The notes beneath the pieces were generated by a model, which saw only the letters and a list, made by a program, of their open reading frames with translations, ran no database searches and had not been told where the DNA came from. From a virus, in IMG/VR virus record IMGVR_UViG_3300043313_001521: a stretch of DNA of 43,720 bases. One strand, written 5' to 3'. Positions 2,578 to 32,682 of the stretch are shown piece by piece. Each line of letters starts with the position of its first letter. Position 1 is the stretch's first letter. The position numbers and the translations under genes are program-made.

Positions 2578-4191
2578 TCAGACCCCCACGAACCAGGACG
2601 GCCGGCGGGCGTTGAGCATCCCCTTCGAGATGCAGTCCCGGCGGGCCTCAGATGAGATGACCGCAGCCATGGCGGCGTCGATCTTGTTGGGCGAGTGCGG
2701 CCGGTCCTTGGTGAGCGTGTACAGGTTGCGGCCGTCGTCATCGGTGGCCGGCAACAGCTTGCGCCGGGCGTTGCCGATGTGGCGGGCGAAGACCGAATCG
2801 CCGTCGTGGGTGACATCACCCGATGCCACCGCCGACACGTAGAACCCGACGGCGTCACCGAGGCGACGAGAGCGCAGGTTCGTCACGAAGTCCGCCACCC
2901 GGTCCTTGCCGTAACGGCCCTCCCACCGGTCGGTCAGATGCTCGATCTTCTGGGGGTCCGAGTAGATGAGCCCGACGTTGAACCGGTCGAAGGCTTCCAT
3001 CACGGCGGCGTCGGCCAGCTCGAAGTCGTGCTCGTAGTCGTCACCCACGCCGGCCGGGCGCTCCAGGATGCACAGGGGCCACTGGTGGAACCCGTCGACC
3101 GTGGTGGCGATGATGGCCAGAGCGTCCTGGTAGCGGGCGCCGTCCACGCCGATGGCGATGAGCGTGCCGTCGGGGACGACCAGGCCGGGCCTTGCTGCGT
3201 TGCGCCAGGCTTCGAGGTCGAAGGCGACATCTTCGCCGGCATGCACCCGGTTGAGAAAGAACCGCTCGGCCTGGGCCGGGTCCCGTTTGAGCAACGCCTC
3301 AATCTCCACGTCGATACGGTCCAGGTCGACCCAGCCTTTCCACGTCTTGCCGTTGCGCACCGAGTCGCCGTAGGCGTGGCGCATCGCCTTGCGCCGTTCG
3401 GCCTTGTTGCGCACCGACCCACCGATGGGCGGCGGATAGTCGACGTAGACGCCCACAGGGTTCTCGTAGGTGTCCTGAGCAACGCTGTCATCGACCAGCG
3501 CCCAGGCGTTGGTCGTGTCCAGGAACCGCCCACCCATGCCCGACAGGTTCCTGCGCTGGTTGTCAGCCAAGCGCTTGCCGCCGTTGCGCTCGACCCAACC
3601 GTGGCCTTCGTCCCCGAGCACGAAGGTGACACGCTGGCCGAGCCGTGAGAGCGCCGACGCCGTCACCGGCTCGATCAGGCCACCGCCGGGCAGGTTGATG
3701 CGGGTGATGCCCGTGTCGGGGAGCTCAGCGTCCAACGGACCGAAGCGGATCATCGGCAGGAGAGCCCGGTAGACGTTGGCCGTCTGGTCCTCGCTGATGG
3801 CCGTGATCTGGATGTGCGGTGTGGGCCACGGACGACCCACTGGCCGACCGTCGGAGTCCCACCCGTCAGGCAACGCCGGGCCGCACGCCTCAAACAGGAT
3901 GATGGCCGCCGAGAACGGACCCTTGCCCCACTTCTGGGGCCGCACCAACAAGGACCCACGCTCATTGTGGAAGCGTGGGCCGGACCACTTCATGGACTTG
4001 CCGGTCGGCTGCAGCCGGTAGTGGTGGACCAGGAACTTGACCATCTCGTCGGTCAGGCGGAACGGCTCGCCGAGCTGGTCGCCGTCAGGGATCACGCACA
4101 TCTCTTCGATCCACTGCCAGGCGACGATGCCCAACGTGGGGAAGTCGAGGCCCGTCTCTGCCAGCTCAGCGTCCGCTCCCCGCCAGGTCAT
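2578..4191 (-). CDS. terL: Terminase large subunit
   Basis: About 537 aa, starting at Met107 of ORF 2578..4509 (MTWRGADAELAE...) with a TGATG overlap on the upstream gene. Position and size fit an ATPase/nuclease terminase. The upstream 106 codons overlap the methylase gene. Confidence 0.85.
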   Translation of the reverse strand: MTWRGADAELAETGLDFPTLGIVAWQWIEEMCVIPDGDQLGEPFRLTDEMVKFLVHHYRLQPTGKSMKWSGPRFHNERGSLLVRPQKWGKGPFSAAIILFEACGPALPDGWDSDGRPVGRPWPTPHIQITAISEDQTANVYRALLPMIRFGPLDAELPDTGITRINLPGGGLIEPVTASALSRLGQRVTFVLGDEGHGWVERNGGKRLADNQRRNLSGMGGRFLDTTNAWALVDDSVAQDTYENPVGVYVDYPPPIGGSVRNKAERRKAMRHAYGDSVRNGKTWKGWVDLDRIDVEIEALLKRDPAQAERFFLNRVHAGEDVAFDLEAWRNAARPGLVVPDGTLIAIGVDGARYQDALAIIATTVDGFHQWPLCILERPAGVGDDYEHDFELADAAVMEAFDRFNVGLIYSDPQKIEHLTDRWEGRYGKDRVADFVTNLRSRRLGDAVGFYVSAVASGDVTHDGDSVFARHIGNARRKLLPATDDDGRNLYTLTKDRPHSPNKIDAAMAAVISSEARRDCISKGMLNARRPSWFVGV

Positions 4192-4898
4192 CAGTCCCGA
4201 GTCCAGAGGTGTTCGGGACGTGGGGTCGTGCTGTAGGCGTGGTGCACGGTCGCCTGCCGTTCGGTCGACCAAATGGACTCCCAGCCCTTGGGTGCATCGA
4301 ACTCGGAGACGAACACCCGGGCGCCGTTGTCCACCCACAGGGCCATGGTCGACCAGAACTGGTCGACGTCGAACTTGAAGCTGGTGCCGGCGTAGGACAT
4401 CGCATCGGCGTAGGGCGGGTCGCAGTAGACCGTCGCCTTGGGCTCGGGCACGATGTCGAGGTAGTCGGAGTGACGGATGGTGGCGCCGGTCAGGTTCCGG
4501 CGCTTGCACAAGGTCGCCCGCTGCGCTTCTGCGAGGTAGTCACGGCCAGCCGACTCGGCCACCGGCCCGTAGCCGCCGAACCATTTGCCGTTGTAGGAAG
4601 CGGCGAAGCCCGCCCACGCACGGAGAGCTGACGGTTCAGAGCTGGATCTCAGCTCGTCGTAGCGGTCGTGTGAGAGATGGCAAGGCGGGACCCACCCGTC
4701 AACGACGTCCCGCCAGAGCTCCACGACATCGGGATGGGCATCGGAAGGGACGGACCGCTCATACCACGGCACCATCTCGCAGGCCACCGACGCGGCGCCC
4801 AGGAACGGCTCGATGTAGGTGTGCCGCTCGACGCCGGAACCGATGATGACGTCGGCGATGCGGCTGGCCGTCCGGGCCTTGCCGCCGATGTAGCGCAC
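4191..4898 (-). CDS. dam: DNA N6-adenine methyltransferase (Dam / D12 class)
   Basis: N-terminal RYIGGK...IEPFLGAASV (SAM-binding FxGxG-like) and a DPPY catalytic motif. GTG start overlaps the terS stop, and its own stop overlaps the terL start. Confidence 0.8.
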   Translation of the reverse strand: MRYIGGKARTASRIADVIIGSGVERHTYIEPFLGAASVACEMVPWYERSVPSDAHPDVVELWRDVVDGWVPPCHLSHDRYDELRSSSEPSALRAWAGFAASYNGKWFGGYGPVAESAGRDYLAEAQRATLCKRRNLTGATIRHSDYLDIVPEPKATVYCDPPYADAMSYAGTSFKFDVDQFWSTMALWVDNGARVFVSEFDAPKGWESIWSTERQATVHHAYSTTPRPEHLWTRD

Positions 4899-5362
4899 TA
4901 GTCCCGCATGTTCTTCAGCCGGTTGCGGATGTCGGTCACCCCGGCGCTCGTCGGCATCTCCTGCGCCGGCTCGTCCGCTACGAAGGCGTAGTGGAGCTTG
5001 GCGGCGGCGGCAGGGGTGAGCCCGAAAGCGTCGTCCATGCGCAGGATCAGCGGCAGGATGCGCACGGCCGTGTCGGTCGCCTTCTGGTCGCCATCGGCGT
5101 CACCTTCGAGCGCTTCGACCCACTGGTCCTCCAACTGGGCTCGCTTGGCCAACGGCTCGATGAAGCCCGGATGCCAGAGCGTCGCCTGAGGTGTGGCCCA
5201 TGCCCATCGCCACCAACGCCTGCCCGCAGCCCCCAAGCGCACCGGACACTTCGGCGGCGTGCCCTGCCGGCCGGTGAGCGGCAGTCGGTGCGCGGCCTGA
5301 GACGCCGAGACATCCCGTCTACGGCGCCGTGCATCCGGTGGCTTGGGGACTGGGTTGGCCAT
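4898..5362 (-). CDS. terS: Terminase small subunit, P27 family
   Basis: 154 aa lying between the HNH and terminase large subunit genes. Basic N-terminus, then a GRRWWRWAW...DDAFGLTPAAAAKL pattern typical of P27-type small terminases. Confidence 0.65.
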   Translation of the reverse strand: MANPVPKPPDARRRRRDVSASQAAHRLPLTGRQGTPPKCPVRLGAAGRRWWRWAWATPQATLWHPGFIEPLAKRAQLEDQWVEALEGDADGDQKATDTAVRILPLILRMDDAFGLTPAAAAKLHYAFVADEPAQEMPTSAGVTDIRNRLKNMRD

Positions 5363-5634
5363 CAGCTCTTGGTGGGCTTCGAGCTATGGGTGGTCGGGTG
5401 GGTGCTGCCCTTGGGCTTGTCGCCGGTCTCGGTCGACCTACGGCTGGGGCCGGCGTCGGGAGCGTCCTTGCCGCTGTACTTCTCGGCCGCCTCCTTGTTG
5501 AGCTGCGCCTGTTGCTCCCGCTCTTCGAGCTGGCGCTTGTTCTCGGCTTCGACCTGCTCTTCCCTGAAGCCCTCAGGCTCCGGTTCGGGCTGGGGTCCCG
5601 TGCCCGGAGTGCCGGGCAGGCTCGGATCGCTCAT
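5362..5634 (-). CDS. Hypothetical, highly charged Pro/Glu/Lys-rich protein (90 aa)
   Basis: Internal Met of ORF 5362..5943. ATGA overlap with the HNH stop at 5631-5634, and its end abuts the terS start. Confidence 0.55.
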   Translation of the reverse strand: MSDPSLPGTPGTGPQPEPEPEGFREEQVEAENKRQLEEREQQAQLNKEAAEKYSGKDAPDAGPSRRSTETGDKPKGSTHPTTHSSKPTKS

Positions 5635-5954
5635 GGGCGGTATCTCCCTTGCGTGGAGCCCCCTTCGTGACCGGACTTGGCTCTGTCGCAGTCCAGGCAG
5701 ATGGCGGCCAGGTTGGATAGGCGGTGGTCGTCTCCGGCGATGACGTGGTCGACCCGGTTGCCGTAGCGCCCACAGATGTGGCACGTGTAGCGGTCCCGTC
5801 GGAGCACCTGACGGCGCAGGCCGTTCCAGTTGGCCGGGAGTCGCTCCCGACGGGTCGATGTGGCATAGGGGGCCGGTGCGTGGGTGTCGCAATAGGTCGT
5901 TGACACCAGGACCGGGCACCGGGGTTCGGCGCAAGGTCCCCATTTGCGAGGCAC
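5631..5954 (-). CDS. HNH endonuclease (terminase-associated)
   Basis: CHICG...VDHV...NL..ICLDCDRAKSGHEG motif. GTG start with a GAGAGGTGGG Shine-Dalgarno sequence. The HNH-terS-terL arrangement is typical of cos phages. Confidence 0.85.
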   Translation of the reverse strand: MPRKWGPCAEPRCPVLVSTTYCDTHAPAPYATSTRRERLPANWNGLRRQVLRRDRYTCHICGRYGNRVDHVIAGDDHRLSNLAAICLDCDRAKSGHEGGSTQGRYRP

Positions 5955-7229: not shown

Positions 7230-7800
7230 CACCTAGACCACGAGCCAGACCACGAGCACCGGGTGAGCCGGTGCTAGTGGCGCGTCCGGCACGCGGGTCA
7301 CCGGCACGCTCTCGAGCTCGAGCACCCGGTGAGGATGTCCAGGACGGTCGGCATGAGCCAGACCACGGCTACGGGCACGCTGGACCTCACCGGCACCCGT
7401 ACGGCTCACGGGCTGGCTCACCATGATGATCAGCACCGGCACCGGCCGGACCACGAGCCGCGCTGCAGCTGGACGGGCACGAGCCGGACCTCACCGGCCG
7501 CTGGACCTCATCGGCCACGAGCCGGCACCCGGACGCGCCTACGGGCTTACGAGCCGGTGCTCATCGGACCTGGACGGTTCACCGGGTGCCGGACCTCACC
7601 CGTACCTGGACCTCACCGGCCGCTGGACGGCCACGGGCACCTGGACGGCCACGAGCCGGTCCTACGGCCACGAGCCGGTCCTACGGCCACGAGCCGGTGC
7701 TCACGGGCACCTGGACGTCCTACGGGCTCACGAGCCGGTGCCTACGGTCCTACGGGCTGGCTCACGGGCACGAGCCGGTCGACCGGGTGCTGGACGGTCG
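7230..7800 (+). repeat. Array of short degenerate repeats, all in one orientation (CACGAGCCGG, GGACCTCACCGGC, CCTACGG, CTGGACGG), including 19-nt tandem units
   Basis: Seven exact CACGAGCCGG copies (7478, 7516, 7650, 7669, 7688, 7729, 7769) plus four near copies. Two perfect 19-nt units at 7649-7686. No stop codons in any plus-strand frame over about 7430-7920. Confidence 0.85.
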
Positions 7801-7935
7801 GCGGCTCCGGCTCCGGCCGCCCACAAAGGGCCGTTCGGCCCACGCCATTGGACCTACCCTCGACGGGTGTCACCCGCTTGGAGGTTGTCGAAGCAGGCGC
7901 TGGGGCGCCGGCCGAATCTCCTTAGAGGGCCGATT

Positions 7936-7980
7936 CCCGGCGATTTTTCGACTCTTTCCTGGCCCGGCGATTTTTCGACT
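7936..7980. repeat. Two perfect 18-nt direct repeats, cccggcgatttttcgact, spaced 27 nt start to start
   Basis: The copies at 7936-7953 and 7963-7980 are identical. Each contains a T5 tract, which is unusual in this GC-rich genome. Confidence 0.9.
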
Positions 7981-8240
7981 TTCAGATTCGGGCTCCAATA
8001 AACTGCCATCCCTGTGATTCGTTGACCTTCCGACACCACTGCTCCGACATGCGCTAGCGTGCAGGCAGGGCAAGCTCACTTCCTTGCCTCGGTGGGCGCC
8101 GGGATCAGAGCGGGCGTCGCCGGTAGGTCTGGACCCGACGCCATCGGTTGCGTCCCTTCCGCGAGGGATGCTTCAGACCAGCCCTGCCGGTGGTGCTCCC
8201 CGGCGCCCACCACCACCAGCTAACAGGTGGCGGGGATGGC

Positions 8241-8288
8241 GAGAGCCCCCGGCGGTCGGAGCCGAACAGCCGACCACCGGGGGCTCTC
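8241..8288. other. Long imperfect hairpin (12-bp outer stem plus 6-bp inner stem)
   Basis: gagagcccccgg pairs with ccgggggctctc, and the inner ggtcgg pairs with ccgacc. It lies inside the gene desert and has no flanking U-tract. Confidence 0.7.
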
Positions 8289-8490
8289 TGACGCTACCGA
8301 CCTGAGCATGGGATACCAGGCCGGCAGCGGTTCATCCCAACTACCCGACCGAGAGCCTACGCACGCCTCAGACACCCCCGTGGGGATGTCGAGCGCCCTG
8401 CCCGACCAGCAACCCCCCACGGCGCTCTACGGGCTATGCAGGCCGTGCTGGCCAGCAAGGGGTGGGGGTGGCACCGGGGGGTGAGCATAA

Positions 8491-8570
8491 GGGGGAGCTC
8501 CCCCAGGGTCCTCCCCCAGGGGGGATCTCCCCCAGGGTCTTCCCCCACGGCAGGGGACATCCCCCACCCC
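8491..8570. repeat. About 30-nt tandem repeat (2.6 copies) built from G4-5/C5 hairpins
   Basis: Units are gggggagctcccccagggtcctcccccagg, then ggggatctcccccagggtcttcccccacgg, then a partial caggggacatcccccacccc. There are six C4-5 tracts on the plus strand (G-tracts on the minus strand). Confidence 0.75.
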
Positions 8571-8580
8571 TGACGCGGGA

Positions 8581-8614
8581 GAGCCCCGGCGCAGATGCCC
8601 AGGCGCCGGGGCTC
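8581..8614. other. Hairpin with a 12-bp perfect stem and a 10-nt loop
   Basis: gagccccggcgc-agatgcccag-gcgccggggctc. Confidence 0.7.
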
Positions 8615-8655
8615 CCATGGAACCAACCATCAGGAAAGGCCAGCCTAGACAGCAA

Positions 8656-8685
8656 GGCACCCCCGGGGGAAGGGCCGGGGGTGCC
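8656..8685 (-). terminator. Hairpin terminator downstream of the M23 peptidase operon
   Basis: ggcacccccgg-gggaaggg-ccgggggtgcc forms a perfect 11-bp stem. It lies about 50 nt beyond the stop at 8738 in the minus-strand direction. Confidence 0.6.
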
Positions 8686-8737
8686 GCGGTGAGACTGACC
8701 ATCCAGTTGCGGGGGACCGAGACCCGCGGCCCGAATC

Positions 8738-9484
8738 CTATCTGTTGATCACCGGGTAGTTGTAGAGCACCCGGCGCTCGTCATCGGTGAGGTCGTCCAC
8801 GTTGAAAGCGGACGGGCTGGCGGCCGGTGGGTTCATCGGTTTCTGCGGTGCGATGAGCCCCACCTTCTGGGCCAGGGTCACCTCGGCCGGCTCGGACATG
8901 TTCAACCGGTGGGGCACGCCTTCGACCAACGTCACGGTGAACTGCCCGTTGTTGTCGGTGAACAGGATGTGCGGGGTCGAGTGGGTGGCGAACTTGCTCA
9001 CCAGCGCGTTGCTGATGATCATCCGCATCTGGTTCCAATCGGCTTCGGTCATGCCTTCATCTCCTCCGGGCGTGAGCCCAAACAGTGGTGCCCGGTCCAA
9101 GTAGCCGGTCGGGTCGATGCGGGTGCCGTGCTCCCACAACTCCAGGTGCGCGTGGCTGCCGGTGGACGAGCCGGTGCTGTCGATGTAGCCGATGGTCGTG
9201 CCGGCGGTGACCCACGTGCCGGACCCGACGGCGAAGCTGTCGTGATGGAACGACTTGAACCGGTCGCCTCCGGCGTCACACCACAGCCAGTTGCCCGCCC
9301 CGCTCTCGTATCCCGTCGTAACGACGCCGTCCCATGGAGCGACCACAGGTACCCCCCAAGGTGCGCCGTAATCGACACCCCCGTGGAACGAGCCCTGCGC
9401 CCCGGTGATGGGGTCGACCCTGTAGCCATAGCCCGACGTCTTGCCGTAGCTCTCCAGCAGGGGGAAGTAGGTCAGCTCTCGCAT
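8738..9484 (-). CDS. M23 family metallopeptidase (putative endolysin) with an uncharacterised C-terminal domain
   Basis: Taken from the internal Met (MRELTYFPL...) of ORF 8738..9730. It carries HxxxD (FHGGVDY) and HxH (GSHAHLEL) motifs. Confidence 0.8.
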   Translation of the reverse strand: MRELTYFPLLESYGKTSGYGYRVDPITGAQGSFHGGVDYGAPWGVPVVAPWDGVVTTGYESGAGNWLWCDAGGDRFKSFHHDSFAVGSGTWVTAGTTIGYIDSTGSSTGSHAHLELWEHGTRIDPTGYLDRAPLFGLTPGGDEGMTEADWNQMRMIISNALVSKFATHSTPHILFTDNNGQFTVTLVEGVPHRLNMSEPAEVTLAQKVGLIAPQKPMNPPAASPSAFNVDDLTDDERRVLYNYPVINR

Positions 9485-9500
9485 GGGCGGCTCCAGACGT

Positions 9501-9854
9501 TCAGGTCGGCCGGCACGCCCAATGTAGGCCGGTCTGGCCGACGAGCAGTGGTTGCCCGCACACCCGGCACTTGGGCTCGGCGTTGGCCTTGGCCTGAGCC
9601 TGGCGTTCGGTCGCCCGGATCTCTTTCCACGGCCAGTCGGCGACCGGCTTCTCACCGATGAGCTCGGTGCCGATCCACGCTTCGAGCGGGAGCTCCCGGG
9701 GCTTGGGCTGGGTGGGGTCGGCCCGGTCATGGTCGGCCATCACGTGCCCGCAGCACAGGCCGCAATAGGACCGGCCCCAGGTGGCGAGCACGAGGGGCCG
9801 GGTCGGGGTGGCGGGGCAGTCGCAGCGGGCGCAGCGGGCGAGCGGTCCGTGCAT
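9501..9854 (-). CDS. Cys-rich (zinc-ribbon-like) hypothetical protein (117 aa)
   Basis: Internal ATG preceded by AAGGAG. Motifs CARCDC...CGLCCGH and CRVCG. Confidence 0.65.
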   Translation of the reverse strand: MHGPLARCARCDCPATPTRPLVLATWGRSYCGLCCGHVMADHDRADPTQPKPRELPLEAWIGTELIGEKPVADWPWKEIRATERQAQAKANAEPKCRVCGQPLLVGQTGLHWACRPT

Positions 9855-9892
9855 CTGAAACTCCTTAAAGCCACCGGTGGCCGGGCCGATAG

Positions 9893-10399
9893 ATGTCCAT
9901 GACCGAACACCCATTGCCCCCACCCCCGGCTCCGGCCGCTCCTCCACCTCAGCCGCTCTGGCGCAACCCGATGGCGATCGCCGTGACGGTGGTGCTCGGC
10001 ATCGGCTGGTCCGCCTTCATGATCTCCATCGGCCATGCCACCTCGGCGAGCCCGTCGACCACCACGGCATCGACCATGGCCGCCAGGGCCGTCGAGACGT
10101 ATGCGGCATCCCTGCCACCGACCAGCCGGGCCACGACCACCACCACGGCCATCCCCACCACCACGATCAAGGGTCTGCGGGACGGAACCCTGGTCGTCGG
10201 CACCGACATCGAGCCCGGCACCTACCGCTCGACATCGACGGAGAGCTGCTATTGGGCTCGCCTGCGCAGCTTCAGCGGCACCGGGAACAACATCATCGCC
10301 AACGAGTTCGTCACCTCCGGCACGGCCATCGTCACCATCCAGGCCGGCGACGTCGGCTTCAAGTCCGAGCGGTGCGGCCCCTGGGAACGCATCGGCTGA
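9893..10399 (+). CDS. Membrane-anchored or secreted protein (moron-like, plus strand)
   Basis: High GC3. Pro-rich N-terminus, one transmembrane helix (MAIAVTVVLGIGWSAFMISIG), a Ser/Thr-rich linker, and a C-terminal domain GTYRS..CYWARL...ERCGPW with a Cys pair. Confidence 0.75.
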   Translation: MSMTEHPLPPPPAPAAPPPQPLWRNPMAIAVTVVLGIGWSAFMISIGHATSASPSTTTASTMAARAVETYAASLPPTSRATTTTTAIPTTTIKGLRDGTLVVGTDIEPGTYRSTSTESCYWARLRSFSGTGNNIIANEFVTSGTAIVTIQAGDVGFKSERCGPWERIG

Positions 10400-10425
10400 G
10401 CGAGTCCATGGGCAATGGCTGAAGA

Positions 10426-10449
10426 GCCGGGCAGGGCGACCTGTCCGGC
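10426..10449. terminator. Bidirectional hairpin between convergent genes 9893..10399 (+) and 10459..10953 (-)
   Basis: gccgggcagg-gcga-cctgtccggc forms a 10-bp stem with one G-T pair. Confidence 0.55.
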
Positions 10450-10458
10450 CTTCGGCGT

Positions 10459-10953
10459 CTACTGGTCGAGCATCTCCATGAGCTTGGCCCGGGGGATCAG
10501 GATGCGCCGACCGAACCTGACGGCGGGGATCGTGCCGTCGTTCGCCGCGGCGTAGGCCGCCGACCGAGAGATGCCCAACAGCTCGGCCGCTTCGTCCACG
10601 CTCAAGGTGAGCGAGTCGGCGGCGGGTCGGGACTGACCGGGCTGGTGCACGTTCAGCCTGATGGCCACCTGGGCGCCGTCCACGCTGGCGATGTGGTTGC
10701 GGGCGAGCCGGGCGATAGCGGAGCGGAGCTTGCCGGGCGCTACACCGATCTCGGCCGCCAGGCCGTTGACCTCGTAGCTGGTGGCTTCGCCCTCGGAGCG
10801 CATGTCGCCGGCCAGCAGGTGGGCCAGCAGCACGGCGGTGGGACCGAGCACCGGCGCCCATGCCCGCAGGAACTCGTCGGTGTCCGTCCCGACCGGTCCG
10901 GTCAGGTTGGGGTGGGCACTGATGGTCACGTGGGAAGTCTCCATGGACGGCAA
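10459..10953 (-). CDS. DNA-binding protein with a C-terminal excisionase/MerR-type helix-turn-helix
   Basis: The C-terminus LSVDEAAELLGISRSAAYAAANDGTIPAVRFGRRILIPRAKL matches the excisionase-family HTH pattern. Confidence 0.7.
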   Translation of the reverse strand: MPSMETSHVTISAHPNLTGPVGTDTDEFLRAWAPVLGPTAVLLAHLLAGDMRSEGEATSYEVNGLAAEIGVAPGKLRSAIARLARNHIASVDGAQVAIRLNVHQPGQSRPAADSLTLSVDEAAELLGISRSAAYAAANDGTIPAVRFGRRILIPRAKLMEMLDQ

Positions 10954-10968
10954 CGTACTGGAGCGGCA

Positions 10969-11307
10969 CTAGACGAACCGCACCCGGGGGTCATCCCCCG
11001 GCATCTCGGGGGCAAAGGCGGCCAGCACGTAGGTCGGGCACGGTCCCCGGTACCGACGCCGGATGGTGAGCGTCTCGCAGTGGTGGGCGTCCCGGTAGTA
11101 GGCCACCCGCGGGGTCCTCCGACGCCAGACGTAGAAGTCGATGGTGCCCTCATCGACCAGGACGGCGAACAGCGTCCAGTACCAGTACGAGCCGGTGCGC
11201 ATGATGGCATCGTCCAGCCACGCCTGCGCTTCGGTCGCGGTGGCCTCGTCCATCTCGGCGACCATCTGGTGCCACGCCGGTGCCGTCAGCACCCACCGCT
11301 CAGCCAT
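10969..11307 (-). CDS. Hypothetical protein (112 aa)
   Basis: Internal Met (MAERWVLTAP...) of ORF 10969..11394, in a high GC3 frame packed tightly against its neighbours. Confidence 0.6.
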   Translation of the reverse strand: MAERWVLTAPAWHQMVAEMDEATATEAQAWLDDAIMRTGSYWYWTLFAVLVDEGTIDFYVWRRRTPRVAYYRDAHHCETLTIRRRYRGPCPTYVLAAFAPEMPGDDPRVRFV

Positions 11308-11954: not shown

Positions 11955-13469
11955 TCAGAGGGCCAAATAGGGGCTGACTTGGTACTTGGGACCGGGTGGC
12001 CGACCACCCTTTGTGCTCGGTTCTGGGTCAGGTAGGCGGCGGATATAGCCCGACCCTTCAAGCAGTTCTAAGACTGGCTTCAGGTCTTCCACCGTTGGCA
12101 ACCGGTGGCGGCACGCACGGTGAGCCTCCCGCCGGGAGAACACCGTGATGTCGGAGTCCTGCGCCCACTTGATGAGCGCCTTGGCGTTGTCTTGCAGGGG
12201 ACCGTCGGCCATCACCTCGAAGGCGTAGAGCGCGTGAGCGGTCAGGTATTCGGCGATCCTGATGGCGTCGTTGACCGGGCCGACCTCGACGTTCTTGCCC
12301 CAGCCCCGGGCGATGTTCGTGGCCAGGTGCAACAGGCCGGCGATGCGGGCCGTGTGGCCCACCAGCTTGCCCGCCCAGTCCCCGATGTGGCCGAGGTCCC
12401 CCATCTCCCGCAGACGGGGCTCCAGGGCCTCCTGGAAGCGCTGCAGGGCAGCACGGGCTTCGGGGGTGAAGACCAGCGGCACCCGGTCGAAGCCGGCGAG
12501 GGTGGCCACCAGGGTCCGCAGGCTCCCGGCAAAGACCTCTTCGACCTCAGCGGGAACCGGCTCAGGGTCGGAGCGGCGATAGCCCACGTTGTTGGCCGGC
12601 ACGCTCCACAGGAACCGGCCGAGCAGGCCACGGCCCCGGGCGCCGTCGATGGCCAGGAGTTGAGAGAGCACCACGGGCTGCACGGTGAGCCCCAAGGTGA
12701 GGGCCGGCTTCTGGATGATCTCCGGGTCCCGGCCTTTGCGGTCGACTCGGATGGACGAACCGACGTGACCCTTCAGGTAAACCCCCAGGTTCGGACCCTT
12801 GCTGGAGTACCGGCCCGCCATCATCGAGAACACCTCCCCTTCGTCGGAGAACATGGCGATCCGTCCGCCCTGCTCGGCCAGCAGGCTGGTGAGGGCTTCG
12901 GGGGTGGCGTCGTCCACCAGCAGGCGGGGCATGGTGGGCACGACGATGGCCTCAGCCATCGCCGCCTTGGCCGCGGCGAAGTGGGCGGCCTCATCCCGGG
13001 CTTCATCGCCGGCTCGCTCGGCCTCTTGCATGGCCTTGGCGGCGTCGGCCTTGGCGATGGCCAGACGGACCTTGGCCTCATGCACCTCGGGGTTGGCCTC
13101 TTCGATGGCCGTCCGCTCGTAGTCGACCAGCGGTGCCGTCACCCGCATGAAGACCGGCGTCTTGCGGGAGCCCGGCGCCATGGCGGTGGCGGTGAACAGG
13201 TTGAGCTCTTCGTCGTAGCCCGGCTTGATCTCCACGTAAGCCCGACCCCCGGCGGCGGCGGCCAAGGCGGTGAGCGCCAACATGGCGGGCAGGTCGACCG
13301 GCACCTGCACGGCCTCGGCGAGCGCCACCACGTAGGCGTTGATCCACGGCGGGAGTCGGTGGGCGGGGAAGATCGGGGGTTTGCCGGTCTGACCGAGCGG
13401 GACGGGTGGCTCCCATCCATCCCCGTTGGCGCGGGCCTGGCGGGCAATGTCCTCGGCGTAACGGCTCAT
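11955..13469 (-). CDS. DUF3987-type replicative helicase / primase-associated protein
   Basis: 504 aa with a degenerate P-loop (APGSRKT). The C-terminal winged-helix-like tail ending in GGRPPGPKYQVSP is characteristic of DUF3987 phage and plasmid replication proteins. Confidence 0.65.
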   Translation of the reverse strand: MSRYAEDIARQARANGDGWEPPVPLGQTGKPPIFPAHRLPPWINAYVVALAEAVQVPVDLPAMLALTALAAAAGGRAYVEIKPGYDEELNLFTATAMAPGSRKTPVFMRVTAPLVDYERTAIEEANPEVHEAKVRLAIAKADAAKAMQEAERAGDEARDEAAHFAAAKAAMAEAIVVPTMPRLLVDDATPEALTSLLAEQGGRIAMFSDEGEVFSMMAGRYSSKGPNLGVYLKGHVGSSIRVDRKGRDPEIIQKPALTLGLTVQPVVLSQLLAIDGARGRGLLGRFLWSVPANNVGYRRSDPEPVPAEVEEVFAGSLRTLVATLAGFDRVPLVFTPEARAALQRFQEALEPRLREMGDLGHIGDWAGKLVGHTARIAGLLHLATNIARGWGKNVEVGPVNDAIRIAEYLTAHALYAFEVMADGPLQDNAKALIKWAQDSDITVFSRREAHRACRHRLPTVEDLKPVLELLEGSGYIRRLPDPEPSTKGGRPPGPKYQVSPYLAL

Positions 13470-14113
13470 GCGTCCTCGTCTTCCCGTGTGGCATGGGCGA
13501 TCGTCTCGCCCACCTGTCCGGCATCCAGGCCGGCGTGGTCGCCGAGCTCGATGAGCGCATCAATCACGTCGGCATCGGTGCCGTTCTCACCCAAGAGGCG
13601 CCCGAAGGCGGCGGCAGTGGCGATCACGGCTTCGGCGACCGCAGCTCTGCGGGCGTCGGCTTCAACCAGGGCGGTGACATCCACGTCGAGCCCGTCGAGA
13701 CGGTCGACCAGTTGGGCGATGCAACGCCGGGCGTCGGCCACCTCGATCACCCGTCGTACCAGGCTCTCGACGGGCGTGCCTGACTGAGCGGTGACAAGTT
13801 GAACCAGCCAGCTCAGCTCGACGTCAGTCATCTCGGCGATGGCCTCGGCCCGACCGACGCAACCGTGCACGGCCAGGCGGGTGTCCTCTTCGAGCCAGTC
13901 GAGCTGCAGGTCGGCGTCGTTGATGTCGGCCACCCAGGTGGCGACCACGATCACGTCGTAGATGCGGTGGTCGTAGAAGTCGGCGGGACCCACTGCCTTC
14001 TCGATGACGAGCGCCTTCTGCCGGTCCACGATGGCGGCGCCGGCCAGGGCCATCTCGGCGGCGGCGTCGAGCGGGATGAGCCGGTTGCCGTCCACGTGCG
14101 TCCAGCCGATCAC
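13466..14113 (-). CDS. DnaB N-terminal-domain-like protein
   Basis: GTG start in a GTGA overlap with the upstream stop. IPLDAAAEMALAGAAIVDRQKAL...GPADFYDHRIYDVI resembles the DnaB N-terminal domain signature. It is coupled to the DUF3987 gene. Confidence 0.5.
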   Translation of the reverse strand: MIGWTHVDGNRLIPLDAAAEMALAGAAIVDRQKALVIEKAVGPADFYDHRIYDVIVVATWVADINDADLQLDWLEEDTRLAVHGCVGRAEAIAEMTDVELSWLVQLVTAQSGTPVESLVRRVIEVADARRCIAQLVDRLDGLDVDVTALVEADARRAAVAEAVIATAAAFGRLLGENGTDADVIDALIELGDHAGLDAGQVGETIAHATREDEDA

Positions 14114-14703
14114 TGGGGGGCCTGGACGTCGTTGGGCCACGGCACCGAGCCGGTGCGGTGGTACAGCTCGAGCTCCTCGATGCGGGGCAGGCGCTCCCAG
14201 CGGCGCACGCACCCGTAGCACCAGACGCACAACAACATGGGCACCGGCAGCCGGTCGCCCACGGTCGTCGGCCTACGGATGTCCGAGCGGGGCGCCACCC
14301 ACCGGGGACCACCGGCCGGTCCCGTCGTCCGGGCACACGACTCGCACCCGGGTTCTTGCACGAGACCGAGGTCCCGGCGGTGGCGTTGGCTCACCCGGGT
14401 CGGCACGGGGTAGCGGTGCAGGATGGCCGTGGCCTTGGTGAGCTCGACCGCTGCGGCCTTGAGCGCCCGGTCCAGGTCCCGCTCGTCGGTCACGGCCTGG
14501 TCGGGTCTCATGCCGGCGTAGACGGTGTCGTGGCGCATGGTGGCGGCCGGGCCTTCGTAGGACCGTGCCCGCAGGTTGCCCTGGAGCTCGCGCATGCGGC
14601 CCATGACGGTGCTGTCGCCGTCGATGGTGTCGAGGATCTTGGCGATGAGGTCGGCCCGGGAGGTGAGCGCCTGGGCGAGACGGATGCGCTGGCGGTCGTT
14701 CAC
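14110..14703 (-). CDS. Hypothetical protein with a C-terminal CxxC...CxxC zinc-ribbon-like motif (197 aa)
   Basis: C-terminal portion of ORF 14110..15315, starting at GTG in a GTGA overlap with the dpdA stop. High GC3. Cys motifs are CESC and CVWCYGC. Confidence 0.65.
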   Translation of the reverse strand: MNDRQRIRLAQALTSRADLIAKILDTIDGDSTVMGRMRELQGNLRARSYEGPAATMRHDTVYAGMRPDQAVTDERDLDRALKAAAVELTKATAILHRYPVPTRVSQRHRRDLGLVQEPGCESCARTTGPAGGPRWVAPRSDIRRPTTVGDRLPVPMLLCVWCYGCVRRWERLPRIEELELYHRTGSVPWPNDVQAPQ

Positions 14704-15479
14704 GTTCCCTCCCACAGGTCGGGCTGTTGGATAGACATCCGGGCGAGCACCCGTTCCCGCCACGCCATCGCCCAGATGGGGCAGTTGGCGCAGTTGCCGG
14801 TGCCGGTCTTGCCGTGGGAGCACCCCGGCAGGGGCGGGTTGCGGCGGGCCTCGTAGGACCACGCCATCGAGTCGGCGGACACGAGGTGCCGGCCGTACAG
14901 GCCCAACCCGACGCTCTTCACCCCGAAGCCGTGGCAGTTGATGCCGGCGTCCTTCAGCTCCCGGAAGATGGTGCCGATCTCCGCGGTGTCCTGCCGGCGG
15001 CACACCGAACCCACACCCACGACGGGCTCGGCGGCCAGGTAGATGCCCTGACGGGCGTAGCGGTCGATGCAGGCCAGGTAGTCGGCGAGCACCCAGCCCT
15101 GCAGGACAGGGATGAATGGCACCTCGGGAGCGTGCTCTCGCAGCAGGGACAGGTTCTCGACGGTGAGCCCCTGGTGGCGGTCCACGCTGAGCCCGGTCTT
15201 GGCCAGCATGTGGGGCTCGCACATCCAGTCCATGGGGGCGGCCCAATCCATCTTCCCGATGTCGGTCATGTACCGGCGGACAGCGTCGATGTAGTCGGCC
15301 GGCTCGGTGCGCCACTTGCCGTACATGGTCAGCTCGGAGAACCCGCCGCTATCGAGCGCCCAGCGGGTGATGGCCACGGGCAGGCGTTTGCGGTGGCCGA
15401 GGCGACGGTGGGAGACGAACAGGGGGACGTTGAGACGTTCCAGCCACACGGGCAGGTGGGTGCCCAGGTAGAACCTCAC
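14700..15479 (-). CDS. dpdA: DpdA-like DNA 7-deazaguanine transglycosylase (TGT superfamily)
   Basis: TGT landmarks occur in order: LDSGGF, PVLQGW, VGVGSVC, HGFGVK, ADSMAWS, and a C-terminal cluster CSHGKTGTGNCANC. The start is set at GTG 15479 (GTGA overlap with the upstream stop); an alternative start lies at 15542. Confidence 0.75.
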   Translation of the reverse strand: MRFYLGTHLPVWLERLNVPLFVSHRRLGHRKRLPVAITRWALDSGGFSELTMYGKWRTEPADYIDAVRRYMTDIGKMDWAAPMDWMCEPHMLAKTGLSVDRHQGLTVENLSLLREHAPEVPFIPVLQGWVLADYLACIDRYARQGIYLAAEPVVGVGSVCRRQDTAEIGTIFRELKDAGINCHGFGVKSVGLGLYGRHLVSADSMAWSYEARRNPPLPGCSHGKTGTGNCANCPIWAMAWRERVLARMSIQQPDLWEGT

Positions 15480-15719
15480 CCGGCGCCCCGTCCCGGCCTG
15501 GCCCGGCGTAGGGCGTCCAGGCGGCGAGCCTCGTTGATCCACGGTCGCAGGTTGATGGTCAGGTCGGGGTCGGTCAGGTCCCTACCTTGGAGCATGAGAC
15601 CGAGCGAGTCGATCAGGGCGGTGAAGGACACGCCGTAGTCGGCCATGAGCGCCCGGTAGGTGTCCTCGGCCTCTTCGGTGCAGCGGGCGAGCATCGCCGT
15701 CTTGGCCAACGGCATCACG
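15476..15719 (-). CDS. Small HTH-like protein, paralogue of 23328..23540
   Basis: Internal Met (MPLAKTAML...) of ORF 15476..16036. It shares GVS.T.L...G..L.G..LT and a basic AR..DA.RR tail with the plus-strand protein beside int. Confidence 0.6.
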
Positions 15720-15882
15720 CGTCGCTCCCCGTGATCGCCGCCAACAGCACCCGGTACCGCTGAGGCATCGCATCGGCCGGGATGCCGGCGGACATCAACA
15801 GCACCAGCCCTTCGAGCCGTTCGGCCTGGGCTTCGACGGCCTTGAGCCGGTGGCGCAGCTCGGCGGTCCCGTCGTTGGGCAT
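15717..15882 (-). CDS. Hypothetical protein (55 aa)
   Basis: ATG at 15882 and a TGATG overlap with the next gene. High GC3. Not in the ORF track because it is short. Confidence 0.5.
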
Positions 15883-15887
15883 GGCGA

Positions 15888-16145
15888 TCACAACGCCGAC
15901 CGCTTCCGGTTGTTGAGCATGGCCAGGGCACCGGCGACGGTGAGCTCGGGGTGACGCTCCATGTACGGCTTGAGCCGGGCGATCGAGATGCCGAAGGTGT
16001 CGGCCTCCCGTTTGGCCCGCAGGGCCGTCTCGTCAAAGTCGTGCTGCGCCGCTTTCAGGTCGTCCCAGTTGGCCTCGATGGTCCGCTTGTAACCGCGGGG
16101 GCCGGGCAGGACCGTCGGGATGTTGAGCTTGTCGAACGTGACCAT
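15888..16145 (-). CDS. Hypothetical protein (85 aa)
   Basis: Internal ATG (MVTFDKLNI...) preceded by AGGAGA. High GC3. Confidence 0.6.
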   Translation of the reverse strand: MVTFDKLNIPTVLPGPRGYKRTIEANWDDLKAAQHDFDETALRAKREADTFGISIARLKPYMERHPELTVAGALAMLNNRKRSAL

Positions 16146-16986: not shown

Positions 16987-18362
16987 GACTCACCCCGGGC
17001 GAACCCGATGATCTCACCGGTCGCCGTGTGGGCGAGCCTGCCCGTCGAGACGTCGTAGACGACCTCTTCATCCTCGATGGCCTGGAGCGTGTCGATCAGG
17101 ACCATGCCGGTGTCCTTGTCGATCTCCCCCCGGGACGTGAAGCCAGGCGAACCCAGAGCGGCGCAGATGTCGAGCGTGACCTGCCGGCGGTAGTCGTCAC
17201 CTTCGGACGGGGTCATGTCGCCGATGGGGAACAGGCCGGCGATCATGGCCATCGCCTTGGACCGCATCTTCGGGGTCATCTTCTCTGGTCGGCCGGCGGG
17301 GACAGGTTCGGCGACCGGCTCCGATGCCGGGACGCTAGGGGCGCTGTCCCCGCCGGTCTCCGCCGGTTGGGTCTTGTGCGAACGGTGGATGTAACGGGAC
17401 GCCCCCGGGGACTTGTCGGGGTTCGGCATCAACGACTCCGAGCCATAGGGCTTCGAGCAGATGTCGCACGTGTCGCCGGCCGCCTGGGCCGCGGTGCGGG
17501 GAGCCCTGCCGGTGGGCGGCAACGGGGCGGCGGCGTTGGCTCGCTTCTTGGCCGGGGGCTTCGCCTGTTCGTGCTCTTTCACCTGCGCCTCAACCGTGAG
17601 CGCCAACGGGGCTTCGACGGCCGGGATCGGCTTCCAGCCCGACGGTGGGGCCTGGTCGAGCGCCGACAGGTCGTCCACCGAGCCGACGGCCGAGTAGGAG
17701 TTGGCGGCCAACTGGCGCACGCCCTGGATGCTCACGTCCAGGTCGATGACGGGGACAGCGAACTTGTAGACCTCGGCCTTGCCGTTGACGAGCTTGCGCT
17801 TCTCCCGGTGGTCGAGCCGGAGCCGGGCCGGGACGATGGAACGGACGCCGGCCAACTGCTCAATGAGCTCGACCGCACCCGACAGCTCGACCGCGGCGTT
17901 CCAGCCGTGGGACTCCAGACGCCAGGTGCCGAGACCGGGCACGTCGGGCAACAGGACGGTGAGCCTCGTGGTGGCCTTGCACGTGCGGTCGTCGGGGTCG
18001 CAGTCGCAGGCCACATCCCGCACCGTGTCCCGCACCGTGTCGCAGCGCCGGGTGCAGTAGCCCTTCGCCCACGCCTCGTAATACTGCGAGAAGCCCAGGT
18101 CGGTCACGTTGGGGGGCAGGGCGATGCGCAGCTCCGACGCCGTGATCGCCACCTCCCACTCGGCCGACCCGTCGTTGTCCCACTCCTTGACGCTCCCGCC
18201 GTAGACGGCGGCCACCGCTTCGATGACCGCACGGTCAGGGCTGGTGAGACGGAAGTGGTCGAGCTTGCGGGGGGCACGCTTGCCGGAACGGGTCGGCACC
18301 TGCACGCCCATGCGGATGCGGCCGACCTCCCGGAAGCGTCGTTGCAGTCCGATGATGGCCAT
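16983..18362 (-). CDS. Conserved early protein (459 aa). The N-terminus resembles the phiC31 gp3-type (RDF-like) family; the C-terminus carries an extra Cys-containing domain.
   Basis: Starts at MAIIGLQRRFREVGRIRMG...KLDHFRLTS (Met128 of ORF 16983..18743) with a TGATG overlap on the HNH stop. The family assignment is from memory of the GxIRxG...LDxFRxTS pattern and is not verified. Confidence 0.4.
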   Translation of the reverse strand: MAIIGLQRRFREVGRIRMGVQVPTRSGKRAPRKLDHFRLTSPDRAVIEAVAAVYGGSVKEWDNDGSAEWEVAITASELRIALPPNVTDLGFSQYYEAWAKGYCTRRCDTVRDTVRDVACDCDPDDRTCKATTRLTVLLPDVPGLGTWRLESHGWNAAVELSGAVELIEQLAGVRSIVPARLRLDHREKRKLVNGKAEVYKFAVPVIDLDVSIQGVRQLAANSYSAVGSVDDLSALDQAPPSGWKPIPAVEAPLALTVEAQVKEHEQAKPPAKKRANAAAPLPPTGRAPRTAAQAAGDTCDICSKPYGSESLMPNPDKSPGASRYIHRSHKTQPAETGGDSAPSVPASEPVAEPVPAGRPEKMTPKMRSKAMAMIAGLFPIGDMTPSEGDDYRRQVTLDICAALGSPGFTSRGEIDKDTGMVLIDTLQAIEDEEVVYDVSTGRLAHTATGEIIGFARGES

Positions 18363-18895
18363 CAGGCGGTCTCCTCTTGTCTCATGACGGCGCGCGTCCT
18401 TGTGACGCGATGCCATTCGGCGTGGTGCTTCGGGCAGAGCCACGACTTCGGCCAGTTGTCGGCGTCGTTCCCGAACAGGCAGCGCGGCGCCCAGTGGTGC
18501 CACTCCGCGCCGATCTCCATGCAGTCGGCGACCTGACACGTCTTGCTGCTGGCTTGATCCCACACGAGCGGGATTCCTTGAGGGGGCACCCTGAGCAGGT
18601 TCCATGGGAGTTGAGGTGACTTCCACCGGCCACACTTGATGCAGATCACGAAGACGCATACGCGGCCGTTCGTCGAGCGGGTCGCCGCGAGGTACTCGGT
18701 GCGAGGAACACGGTAAGGGGGCGTGTATTGCTCGTGACCGCAATGGGGCACGTAGTTCTCGGCGGCACGCGTGAAGGTCTCGGGATCAGATAGGTCGATC
18801 CTTTGGGCTTCCCTGATCGCCCGAAGGCGCTCACAGTCGTAGGGTTCGATGGGTTGGGCGAGCACGTGGGTCATCGGATGGACTCCACGACGCAC
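18362..18895 (-). CDS. HNH endonuclease (free-standing, in the early region)
   Basis: C-terminal CMEIGAEWHHWAP...LCPKHHAEWH motif. The true start may be the internal Met at 18874. Confidence 0.7.
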   Translation of the reverse strand: MRRGVHPMTHVLAQPIEPYDCERLRAIREAQRIDLSDPETFTRAAENYVPHCGHEQYTPPYRVPRTEYLAATRSTNGRVCVFVICIKCGRWKSPQLPWNLLRVPPQGIPLVWDQASSKTCQVADCMEIGAEWHHWAPRCLFGNDADNWPKSWLCPKHHAEWHRVTRTRAVMRQEETA

Positions 18896-23189: not shown

Positions 23190-23219
23190 ACCATATCGTG
23201 AACGTACACACGAGTGCAA
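23190..23219 (-). promoter_or_regulatory. Candidate promoter giving a leaderless int transcript
   Basis: Read on the minus strand: TTGCAC (23219-23214), an 18-nt spacer, then TATGGT (23195-23190). The -10 element ends 7 nt upstream of ATG 23182. Confidence 0.3.
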
Positions 23220-23327
23220 ATGTCACCCCTAGGTGACAAGGCTAGGCAGGTCATGGCACCGGTCCCTACCTGCACCACCATGGTCCGGCTAGGGTTGGCG
23301 GACACCACCAACCTACCGGAGGACACC

Positions 23328-23540
23328 ATGACGGAGCGCCAAGCCCTTCACGCCTACCTCGGCCAAGAAGCTCATGCCGGTTGGCAGGACTTCGCCGAGC
23401 AGAACGGCGTGTCAGCCACCAGCCTGTGCGAGGTCATCGGCGTCGACCTGGGCGGGGCCGTCCTGACCGGCGACGACGTCTTCCCCGACCTCGTGAAGCG
23501 TGCCCGCAAGATCGACGCCGTGAGGCGGCGCCGGGGATGA
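23328..23540 (+). CDS. Small HTH-like protein beside int (candidate immunity regulator), paralogue of 15476..15719
   Basis: GGAGG ribosome-binding site plus ATG at 23328. 70 aa, with FAEQNGVSATSLCEVIG looking like an HTH and a basic RKIDAVRRRRG tail. It is transcribed divergently from int. Confidence 0.6.
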   Translation: MTERQALHAYLGQEAHAGWQDFAEQNGVSATSLCEVIGVDLGGAVLTGDDVFPDLVKRARKIDAVRRRRG

Positions 23541-32273: not shown

Positions 32274-32682
32274 GGCTGTTCGCTTTGGCCAACGCTGCCG
32301 CTCGGGCGATCGGGCCGGGGTCGTCCCGGGACACGTCCTGCTGGATCTTCAGCCCGGTGCAGATCCACCACGTCTTGATCGTGTCGCCCGTGGTCTTGTC
32401 CAGCTCTTCGAGGTCGAACATCATGCCGTTCTTCAACATGGCGGTCTCGTCGCCGGTCATCGTCATGAGCACCTGCGACGGGACGCTGCCACCGGAGGGC
32501 GTGACGACCGTGCAGGTGAACGAGACGACCAGCGCAGCGTCATAGGTGGTGCGTACCTGTGCCCGCCAGTCCGAGCCGGACACGTCGAGCGGGACGCCGT
32601 CGACGGAGATGTTGACGGGGATGGTCAGCGGGTCGCCGCGGACGACCGCGCCGTTGGTGGGGTAGGCGGATAGCGCGGCCAT
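32266..32682 (-). CDS. Minor tail protein (138 aa)
   Basis: High GC3. An 8-nt overlap (GTGCCTGA) with the collagen-like gene. Confidence 0.6.

Follow-up and report, generated by a model that had tools for sequence, protein, structure and literature searches.

A solo DpdA gene within an apparently mobile insert in the replication operon of an uncultured temperate actinophage

The window (the whole 43,720-nucleotide stretch of IMG/VR record IMGVR_UViG_3300043313_001521) is a complete temperate actinophage genome of about 43.65 kb, as indicated by the exact 69-bp direct repeat at its termini, and it encodes a genuine, full-length DpdA of the TGT superfamily, which belongs to the already described 'DpdA only' group of phages. 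We propose that this solo DpdA, the gene of which appears to sit in a mobile insert (Table 1), probably carries out a base-dependent exchange of guanine in the phage DNA, as a protection against restriction.

Table 1. Position and assignment of the dpdA gene, its insertion and the neighbouring or related genes of the window.
Feature	Coordinates	Strand	Assignment	Basis
dpdA	14700..15479	-	259-aa DNA guanine transglycosylase, short 'singleton' actinophage clade	Pfam PF23859, AF2 model, conservation
small79 + dpdA insertion	14703..15719	-	putative mobile insert, 1,017 bp	blastn vs closest relatives
small79	15476..15715	-	79-aa ORF, co-inserted with dpdA	rare family adjoining DpdA; no family match
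58-aa conserved small gene	15715..15891	-	upstream border of the slot	kept in L007 and L009
Cys4	14110..14703	-	197-aa conserved stand-alone replication-module gene	homologue conservation and gene context in relatives
215-aa protein	13466..14113	-	possibly DnaB-N-terminal-like	residues 9-85 weakly match an NCBIfam replicative helicase (E 0.005)
DUF3987 protein	11955..13469	-	helicase-like replication protein	PF13148, E 4.9e-104; PHROG 2373 'DNA helicase'
small79 paralogue	23202..23537	+	beside serine integrase	hmmsearch with small79 profile, E 2.5e-7

The DpdA identity, which the initial annotation had read from the sequence, was confirmed by the Pfam search, where the ORF matched the DpdA family with an E value of 4.8e-98 and 328 bits (the curated cut-off being 27 bits) over profile positions 4-260 of 291. 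The ORF also matched PHROG 1279, and no NCBIfam model matched it. All the TGT landmarks listed in the initial annotation (LDSGGF, PVLQGW, VGVGSVC, HGFGVK, ADSMAWS and a C-terminal Cys/His cluster) are present in the translation of the minus strand between 14700 and 15542, which contains WALDSGGFSELT, IPVLQGWVL, VGVGSVCRRQ, HGFGVKS, SADSMAWSYE and GCSHGKTGTGNCANCPIW. The 259-residue protein starts at the GTG codon at 15479, a start that was also called, independently, on a metagenome contig of identical sequence and that agrees with the N-termini of the homologues, which are of the form M/VRFYLGTH. The AF2 model of the protein (pLDDT 92.9) displays the alternating strands and helices of a TIM barrel ((beta/alpha)8), and its best Foldseek match in the PDB is the TGT of Z. 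mobilis, 7a3x (E 4e-7; TM 0.58, query-normalised; 15% identity), followed by generic TIM barrels only. This structural match to bacterial TGT had no counterpart at the sequence level: PDB sequence searches with the DpdA protein or with a 25-sequence profile returned nothing, even at E<=10, and the hhalign comparison of the DpdA profile with E. coli TGT was non-significant. Its length indicates that the window DpdA lacks the lid found at the N-terminus of TGT and the parts that bind tRNA at the C-terminus.

Concerning the active site, residues D43, D84, Q127, G128, G155, G157, D203, H222 and C233 are invariant in the 25-26 homologues used for catalytic-motif conservation (56-71% identical to the window DpdA), and both C220 and C230 are at least 90% conserved in them. 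The three invariant aspartates occur in the LDSGGF (D43), DWMCEP (D84) and ADSMAW (D203) motifs. In the hhalign comparisons, VGVGS, HGFGVK and ADSMAW stand opposite VGLGG, HGWGIT and VDSSGW of the Rosebush DpdA, with D203 aligned to the Asp of VDSSGW, and the C-terminal Cys/His residues stand opposite the CxCxxC of TGT in the weak, non-significant alignment to the E. coli enzyme. We propose that D43 and D203 most likely form the catalytic pair, as the acid/base and the nucleophile, respectively, an assignment drawn from motifs and conservation, as the searches gave no alignment at residue level to a solved structure of TGT or bDpdA. With its TGT-like TIM barrel, its presumed Asp pair and recognition Asp, and its putative Zn-site residues, the window DpdA would resemble the bDpdA of S. 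Montevideo, which has the catalytic Asp95 and Asp256, the base-recognition Asp130 and a structural Zn site (PMC10164549). They differ in that bDpdA requires the ParB-like ATPase DpdB and has large insertions, of which Ins8 makes up about 30% of the protein (PMC10164549), whereas the window DpdA is about 140 aa shorter, and the Pfam scan and tblastn searches found no DpdB/ParB-like or other Dpd-system gene in the window.

As claimed in the initial annotation, the window has no 7-deazaguanine biosynthesis genes, as shown by the following lines of evidence. First, the Pfam scan detected none of QueC, QueD, QueE, FolE, QueF and Vut_1 (YhhQ) among the 74 candidate ORFs of the window. Second, the QueC, QueD, QueE, FolE and ParB proteins of Rosebush gave no tblastn match to the window at E<=1e-3. 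Third, the SGGxDS motif occurs in none of its six frames, and CxxxCxxC occurs in non-coding frames only. Because the phage cannot make a 7-deazaguanine base, it would have to obtain one through the host, either from the preQ0 pathway of the latter or by host uptake. DpdA would then exchange guanine in the phage DNA for the 7-deazaguanine base after replication, most likely through the double displacement of the TGT/DpdA enzymes, with D203 as the nucleophile and D43 as the acid/base. The DNA carrying 7-deazaguanine would escape restriction, and in a host offering no such base DpdA would be idle. The data directly show the family membership, the fold, the conserved active-site motifs, the missing pathway genes, the limits of the insertion and its lack of linkage to Cys4, whereas the substrate, any in vivo activity and the protection against restriction are inferred.

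The dependence on an outside base has already been proposed by Hutinet et al. 2019 (PMC6884629) for the 'DpdA only' phages, which form the third and largest (76 phages) of the groups in that study. The same study reported that a phage DpdA expressed alone in E. coli put the host preQ0 into DNA, and that the DNA of phage Rosebush contains 28% dPreQ0 (PMC6884629). It also reported that no 7-deazaguanine could be detected in the DNA of Orion, the only actinophage of this group to have been analysed, the host of which is without the pathway (PMC6884629). Hence, the statement of the initial annotation that the enzyme must use host preQ0 or preQ1, or some other base, is a fair inference as regards the external origin of the base, but the 'must' is not given, Orion being unmodified. 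Counting against the model proposed above are the unmodified DNA of Orion despite a singleton DpdA 52% identical to that of the window, and the presence of neither a transporter gene nor a QueC gene in the window.

The DpdA1 enzymes of the full-pathway phages (Rosebush gp2, CAjan and 9g) have the superfamily, the order of the motifs and the presumed reaction (DNA guanine to 7-deazaguanine) in common with the window DpdA. However, the Rosebush DpdA is a 385-aa protein flanked by ParB-like, QueC, QueD, QueE and FolE genes, whereas the window DpdA is a minimal barrel, and the two show no tblastn similarity. Among isolated phages, the nearest DpdAs are the singletons of mycobacteriophages (clusters K and B1; Validus gp43, Ekdilam gp37, Roliet gp20 and Orion), which are as short as the window protein (about 255 aa) and 52-59% identical to it over 86-96% of its length (Orion, 52%). 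As in the window, they occur with no preQ0/G+ genes nearby, in phages of actinobacterial hosts and at accessory positions. Their genes lie among structural genes or, often, near an integrase, whereas the window dpdA is inside the replication operon, comes from an uncultured lineage and arrived together with the 79-aa ORF.

The singleton DpdA clade is very large, with 5,631 clusters, and strongly conserved, although pathway genes are missing. As regards the source of the base, a gene for a YhhQ/Vut_1 precursor transporter directly adjoins DpdA in 10 of the 43 IMG/VR loci, such a gene also adjoins the closest DpdA homologue (L068, 70% identity), and a bona fide QueC (E 1.3e-58) adjoins DpdA in L039. 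The adjacent YhhQ in about a quarter of the clade loci, together with the one QueC, favours the salvage of 7-deazaguanine bases for an anti-restriction modification, and the YhhQ-type genes beside DpdA in many clade members make this salvage hypothesis directly testable. As a bolder and doubtful extension, the short singleton clade could be a salvage-dependent DNA-modification module, often accompanied by a YhhQ-type transporter alone, the substrate of which in Q-pathway-deficient actinobacteria would be an environmental or unrecognised base. Among the DpdAs of phages, the solo type is the most numerous.

These data also bear on the alternative that the singleton clade changed function, to insert a base other than the known 7-deazaguanines, to take tRNA or host DNA as its substrate, or to remove modified bases (as a counter-defence glycosylase/transglycosylase, for instance). 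Such a divergence, raised as a question by Hutinet et al. (PMC6884629), would agree with the intact dpdA of Orion in the face of its 7-deazaguanine-free DNA, with the large size and good conservation of a clade devoid of pathway genes and with the want of BLAST-level similarity to the Rosebush DpdA. Arguing against it are the YhhQ-type transporters and the QueC found beside DpdA, and the active-site motifs that fit the TGT/DpdA pattern, and we regard it as unlikely.

The boundaries of the insertion were defined by blastn: positions 16974-15720 of the window align to 7441-8697 of the relative L007, and positions 14702-14126 to 8707-9283, so that the insertion is replaced by 9 bp in L007 and L008, which have no dpdA and have Cys4 at the same position. 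In L009 the slot is filled by a 377-aa N6_N4 DNA methyltransferase, to which Cys4 is coupled in the same way as it is to dpdA in the window. The 58-aa gene that borders the slot directly precedes Cys4 or the methyltransferase in L007 and L009. Methyltransferases also occur near Cys4 in other loci (L004, L006, L016, L019 and L021-L023) and beside DpdA in L069 and L070. Small79 and dpdA appear to make up a mobile two-gene insert, placed just ahead of the conserved Cys4 gene in an accessory slot of variable content. That the slot of near-isogenic relatives is empty, holds dpdA or holds a DNA methyltransferase supports an anti-restriction role and offers a clean natural comparison. At the nucleotide level, the region had no megablast match among 50,697 phage records, and the scan for promoters and terminators around the operon gave results at chance level.

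A recent insertion, missing from the closest relatives, would also be expected if dpdA were a silent passenger, i.e., a recently transferred moron without substrate in its current host, for which Orion provides a precedent (PMC6884629), and the co-transferred small79 has a variant (P0164) whose conserved core has been deleted in frame. Against this stand the full-length ORF with every conserved residue intact, the codon usage that fits the rest of the genome (GC3 of 0.91 for dpdA), and the strong GGAGG-type site arrangement of a gene embedded in an operon, and we regard the silent passenger as improbable, a little more so than the change of function.

The co-inserted small79 belongs to a rare family, with just three other clusters among 5.8 billion proteins, and had no match in Pfam, PHROGs or NCBIfam, which lend no support to its initial description as HTH-like. 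It adjoins DpdA in all three contexts readable for its own homologues (the window, L072 and the P0165 contig), and a related, more distant ORF adjoins DpdA in L058. Small79 might serve DpdA as an accessory protein peculiar to this clade; the adjacency may instead reflect a shared origin near integrases. We downgraded it as a true DpdA partner, in view of the core-deletion variant and of its integrase-adjacent paralogue, which is also found in L008, L009 and L013, dpdA-less relatives included.

As to the downstream neighbour of dpdA, the start and stop codons overlap between small79 and dpdA (15479/15476), dpdA and Cys4 (14703/14700), and Cys4 and the next gene (14113/14110), and the DUF3987 gene is entered through an ATGA at 13469. 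The GTGA overlaps which, in the initial annotation, tied dpdA to both its neighbours are real, but they are generic in this genome, as the surrounding sequence is [AGT]TGA for 26 of the 61 minus-strand stops of the window and of the TGATG type for a further 13 (some of these being expected by chance at the GC3 of the genome), and about ten other 4-nt overlaps appear in independent longest-ORF calls. Being so common genome-wide, the overlaps are no mark of a specific dpdA/Cys4 coupling, and the genes of this genome are, by default, packed so as to be translationally coupled.

The co-occurrence of the two genes, which the initial annotation had itself named as a condition for refutation, did not bear out the suggestion that Cys4 is a new DpdA partner. 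None of 20 related Cys4 loci has a DpdA within 10 kb, the nearest relatives (81% identity) included, and 46 of the 47 DpdA loci are without Cys4. That Cys4 would be a dedicated partner targeting the modification to replicating DNA is very improbable: it has on its side the 4-nt overlap of the two adjacent genes in the window, the Cys4, small79, DpdA order in the close relative L072 and the occurrence in L070 of a Cys4 homologue (34% identity) at a distance of 3.4 kb from DpdA, and against it, besides the co-occurrence counts and the generic overlaps, the unlike size and spread of the families (41 Cys4 clusters versus 5,631 DpdA clusters at 90% identity), the location of dpdA upstream of Cys4 in the window and downstream in L072, and the unrelated inserts accepted on either side of Cys4 (in L009, the methyltransferase gene and an HNH-like one). 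Cys4 is instead a resident gene of the replication module, located between RuvC-like and DUF3987 genes in dpdA-less relatives, and, as a correction to the earlier reading, annotations should not describe it as a partner of DpdA.

The description of Cys4 itself stood: its N-terminal half is helical and the CESC...CVWC motif is present, and among distant homologues C120, C123 and C159 are invariant and C162 is almost so. The family comprises 490 cluster representatives at E<=1e-3, all of 170-320 aa, and has no counterpart in Pfam, PHROG or NCBIfam, nor in 50,697 phage records searched by tblastn. The AF2 model of Cys4 (pLDDT 79) has no Foldseek fold match in the PDB and a single one in BFVD, an uncharacterised protein of an uncultured phage. 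A MerR HTH occurs in one of the 32 distant members, which hints at DNA binding but assigns no function, and among the genome contigs searched one match (31% identity) occurs in a Nocardioidaceae MAG, too weak to name the host. Of the other genes of the module named in the initial annotation, the DUF3987 gene was recovered by Pfam as a strong match, and the 'DnaB-N-like' label of the 215-aa protein corresponds to its sole match, which is weak and far below the cut-off; this protein is conserved at 83% in L009.

Within window 14110-15479, which comprises the two ORFs dpdA and Cys4, the initial annotation had recognised a DpdA enzyme from its motifs. All these motifs are present in the translation of dpdA, which matches the DpdA profile of Pfam (PF23859, E 4.8e-98) and PHROG 1279 (E 2.8e-98), and a 2.3-kb ENA metagenome contig carries an identical 259-aa gene call. 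The AlphaFold2 model of the protein (pLDDT 92.9, built on 26 homologues) is a beta/alpha barrel, of which the best PDB match is the Z. mobilis tRNA-guanine transglycosylase 7a3x (E 4e-7, TM 0.58), followed by generic TIM barrels only; no sequence-level alignment to any solved structure was obtained. In the clade sample, D43, D84, Q127, G128, G155, G157, D203, H222 and C233 do not vary, and C220 and C230 are almost invariant. Assuming residue equivalence, this pattern agrees with what has been described for bDpdA and TGT (PMC10164549): a pair of catalytic Asp residues, further residues for base recognition, and a Zn site. Unlike the 385-aa DpdA of the type found in mycobacteriophage Rosebush, which lies inside a ParB/QueC/QueD/QueE/FolE cluster, the window DpdA is short and stands alone. 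The two are too distant for BLAST to find any similarity, and a profile alignment places the window VGVGS, HGFGVK and ADSMAW opposite Rosebush VGLGG, HGWGIT and VDSSGW.

Coordinates, strands and characteristics of the window features discussed in the text
Feature	Window position	Strand	Remarks
dpdA	14700-15479	-	259 aa; start GTG at 15479
small79	15476-15715	-	79 aa; upstream of dpdA
Cys4	14110-14703	-	197 aa
small79 paralogue	23202-23537	+	next to the serine integrase, in divergent orientation; E 2.5e-7
D12-class N6-adenine DNA methyltransferase	4191-5099	-	DPPY motif; adjoins terminase
HNH-like ORF	5631-5954	-	adjoins terminase
Tail-fibre-like protein	30582-32348	-	long collagen-type Gly-X-Y repeat array

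Bases 1-69 of the window recur exactly at its end (43652-43720), which makes it a complete, closed phage genome of ~43.65 kb, either circular or terminally redundant. It has a GC content of ~67% and carries nearly all its genes on the minus strand. Pfam and PHROG searches identified structural and lysis genes (terminase, portal, tape measure, tail tube, M23 lysin); the other genes include those for a large serine integrase, a RuvC-like resolvase, a Gp3-like/RecT-like protein and a D12 adenine methyltransferase, from which it follows that this phage already encodes one DNA modification besides DpdA. None of the 74 candidate window ORFs was assigned by the Pfam scan to QueC, QueD, QueE, FolE, QueF, ArcS or YhhQ; tblastn with the Rosebush QueC, QueD, QueE, FolE and ParB gave no match in the window; and a six-frame motif scan found no SGGxDS, and CxxxCxxC in non-coding frames only. 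Since the genome is complete and the pathway searches are negative, the observation of an orphan DpdA, devoid of 7-deazaguanine biosynthesis genes, holds.

This orphan is a new member of an already published group. Hutinet et al. (2019) described a third, largest group of phages (n=76) with DpdA but without pathway genes, including a distinct cluster of singleton DpdAs of Mycobacterium phages, and proposed that DpdA-only phages use host preQ0 or take up exogenous precursors (PMC6884629). In keeping with this membership, tblastn of the window DpdA against 50,697 phage records matched 407 of them, 399 being Mycobacterium phages of clusters K and B1 (52-59% identity), where the homologues are annotated 'queuine tRNA-ribosyltransferase'; in Validus and Roliet, dpdA stands alone as in the window. 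The short form is very abundant in metagenomes: 5,631 clusters were matched at E<=1e-20, of which the closest shares only 70% identity with the window DpdA. To what was known, our analysis adds a slot at which insertion and replacement can be followed cleanly among relatives, and the observation that YhhQ-type transporter genes often adjoin DpdA in the clade.

The dpdA gene is a recent two-gene insertion, together with small79, in an accessory slot. In blastn comparisons with L007, one of the loci of the closest relatives, window 16974-15720 aligns with 7441-8697 and window 14702-14126 with 8707-9283. The breakpoints are clean: where L007 and L008, another close relative, have 9 bp, the window has 1,017 bp (14703-15719), made up precisely of small79 and dpdA. 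In a third one, L009, the equivalent slot (8871-10004) harbors a 377-aa N6_N4 DNA methyltransferase, indicating that the slot takes alternative DNA-modifying genes. A 4-nt overlap joins the stop of this methyltransferase to the start of Cys4, and the coupling to Cys4 therefore follows from position alone. Every start/stop overlap described initially is indeed present, and such overlaps are the rule in this genome: independent ORF calls revealed about ten further 4-nt overlaps, and 26 of the 61 minus-strand stops lie in an [AGT]TGA context, which is partly expected by chance at the GC3 of the genome. Both flanks of Cys4 are variable, as L009 also has an HNH-like gene (10750-11031, similar to window 18362-18895) inserted just downstream. 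The 998-bp contig L072 of a close relative displays the order Cys4, small79, DpdA, with the cassette on the opposite side of Cys4 as compared to the window. L008 and L011 both belong to IMGVR_UViG_3300005364_000010 (41.6 kb), which contains two different replication modules (Cys4 homologues of 81% and 53% identity) and could be two phages joined in assembly, as a chimera or by concatenation.

The proposal that Cys4 is a new DpdA partner was not supported by co-occurrence. DpdA was absent from all 20 sampled loci of Cys4 homologues (16 from IMG/VR, three from metagenomes and one from a MAG, with flanks of up to 10 kb on each side), which show the order exonuclease, Gp3-like, RuvC-like, small genes, Cys4, (215-aa protein), DUF3987. 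Reciprocally, a Cys4-like gene occurs in just one of the 47 loci with DpdA relatives (L070; 34% identical, 3.4 kb away). The protein itself is as initially described: its N-terminal half is helical and its C-terminal region carries CxxC...CxWC, where C120, C123 and C159 remain constant, and C162 almost so, even in members at 23-40% identity. At 90% identity the family forms 41 clusters, each of metagenomic origin; a profile search retrieved 490 representatives (at the 50% identity level), which are without exception stand-alone proteins of 170-320 aa. Cys4 itself gave no family match and no PDB fold match. From the fusion of one distant member to a MerR HTH and from the gene position, our guess is that Cys4 might bind DNA, either in replication or in early regulation.

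Concerning small79, only three other clusters were found, and it adjoins DpdA where the context is readable, in L072 and in a contig ordered DpdA, small79, tyrosine integrase; in L058, DpdA and a tyrosine integrase have a more distant relative of small79 upstream. The integrase-side paralogue, for whose family no annotation was found, occurs also in relatives that lack dpdA, its position being conserved in L008, L009 and the further relative L013. Most simply, small79 and dpdA would have been copied as a pair from an accessory region close to the integrase in another temperate actinophage. The two may possibly be functionally linked. The 3.9-kb JGI contig P0164 carries a population variant of small79 in which an in-frame deletion of 23 aa takes out the most conserved segment, YGVSF...DLTD.

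A gene of the Vut_1/YhhQ family (PF02592) of preQ0/preQ1 transporters directly adjoins DpdA in 10 of 43 IMG/VR loci (L027, L028, L033, L040, L041, L045, L046, L048, L049 and L051), and the DpdA most similar to that of the window (L068) has such a neighbour too. Judging from this gene order, the transporter-like gene and the adjoining short DpdA would make up an 'import and insert' module of two genes. YhhQ was reported to be uncorrelated with any phage group by Hutinet et al. (2019, PMC6884629). In L039 (5248-6658), a singleton-type DpdA is immediately followed by a true QueC (PF06508, E 1.3e-58), QueD, QueE and FolE being absent within 6 kb of the pair. Through these YhhQ genes and one QueC, the clade of the window DpdA keeps ties to 7-deazaguanine metabolism; DNA methyltransferases are also found beside DpdA in other loci. 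From the conserved active site and the clade context, the best-supported model is that DpdA would swap guanine in DNA, after replication, for a salvaged or host-made 7-deazaguanine, thereby allowing restriction evasion. Having neither transporter nor QueC, the window phage would depend totally on its host for the base. Alternatively, DpdA may have diverged in function or be a silent passenger, as such a gene can exist without detectable modification: mycobacteriophage Orion carries a singleton dpdA, and no 7-deazaguanine was found in its DNA, M. smegmatis being without the pathway (Hutinet et al. 2019, PMC6884629).

The singleton DpdA clade also occurs on an integrative element, not a phage, in L069, a 352-kb JGI contig of bacterial size. 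Its 365-aa DpdA (10001-11098) has a C-terminal extension and is accompanied by genes for a 940-aa protein, an N6_N4 methyltransferase, a resolvase, tyrosine integrases and FtsK/SpoIIIE proteins.
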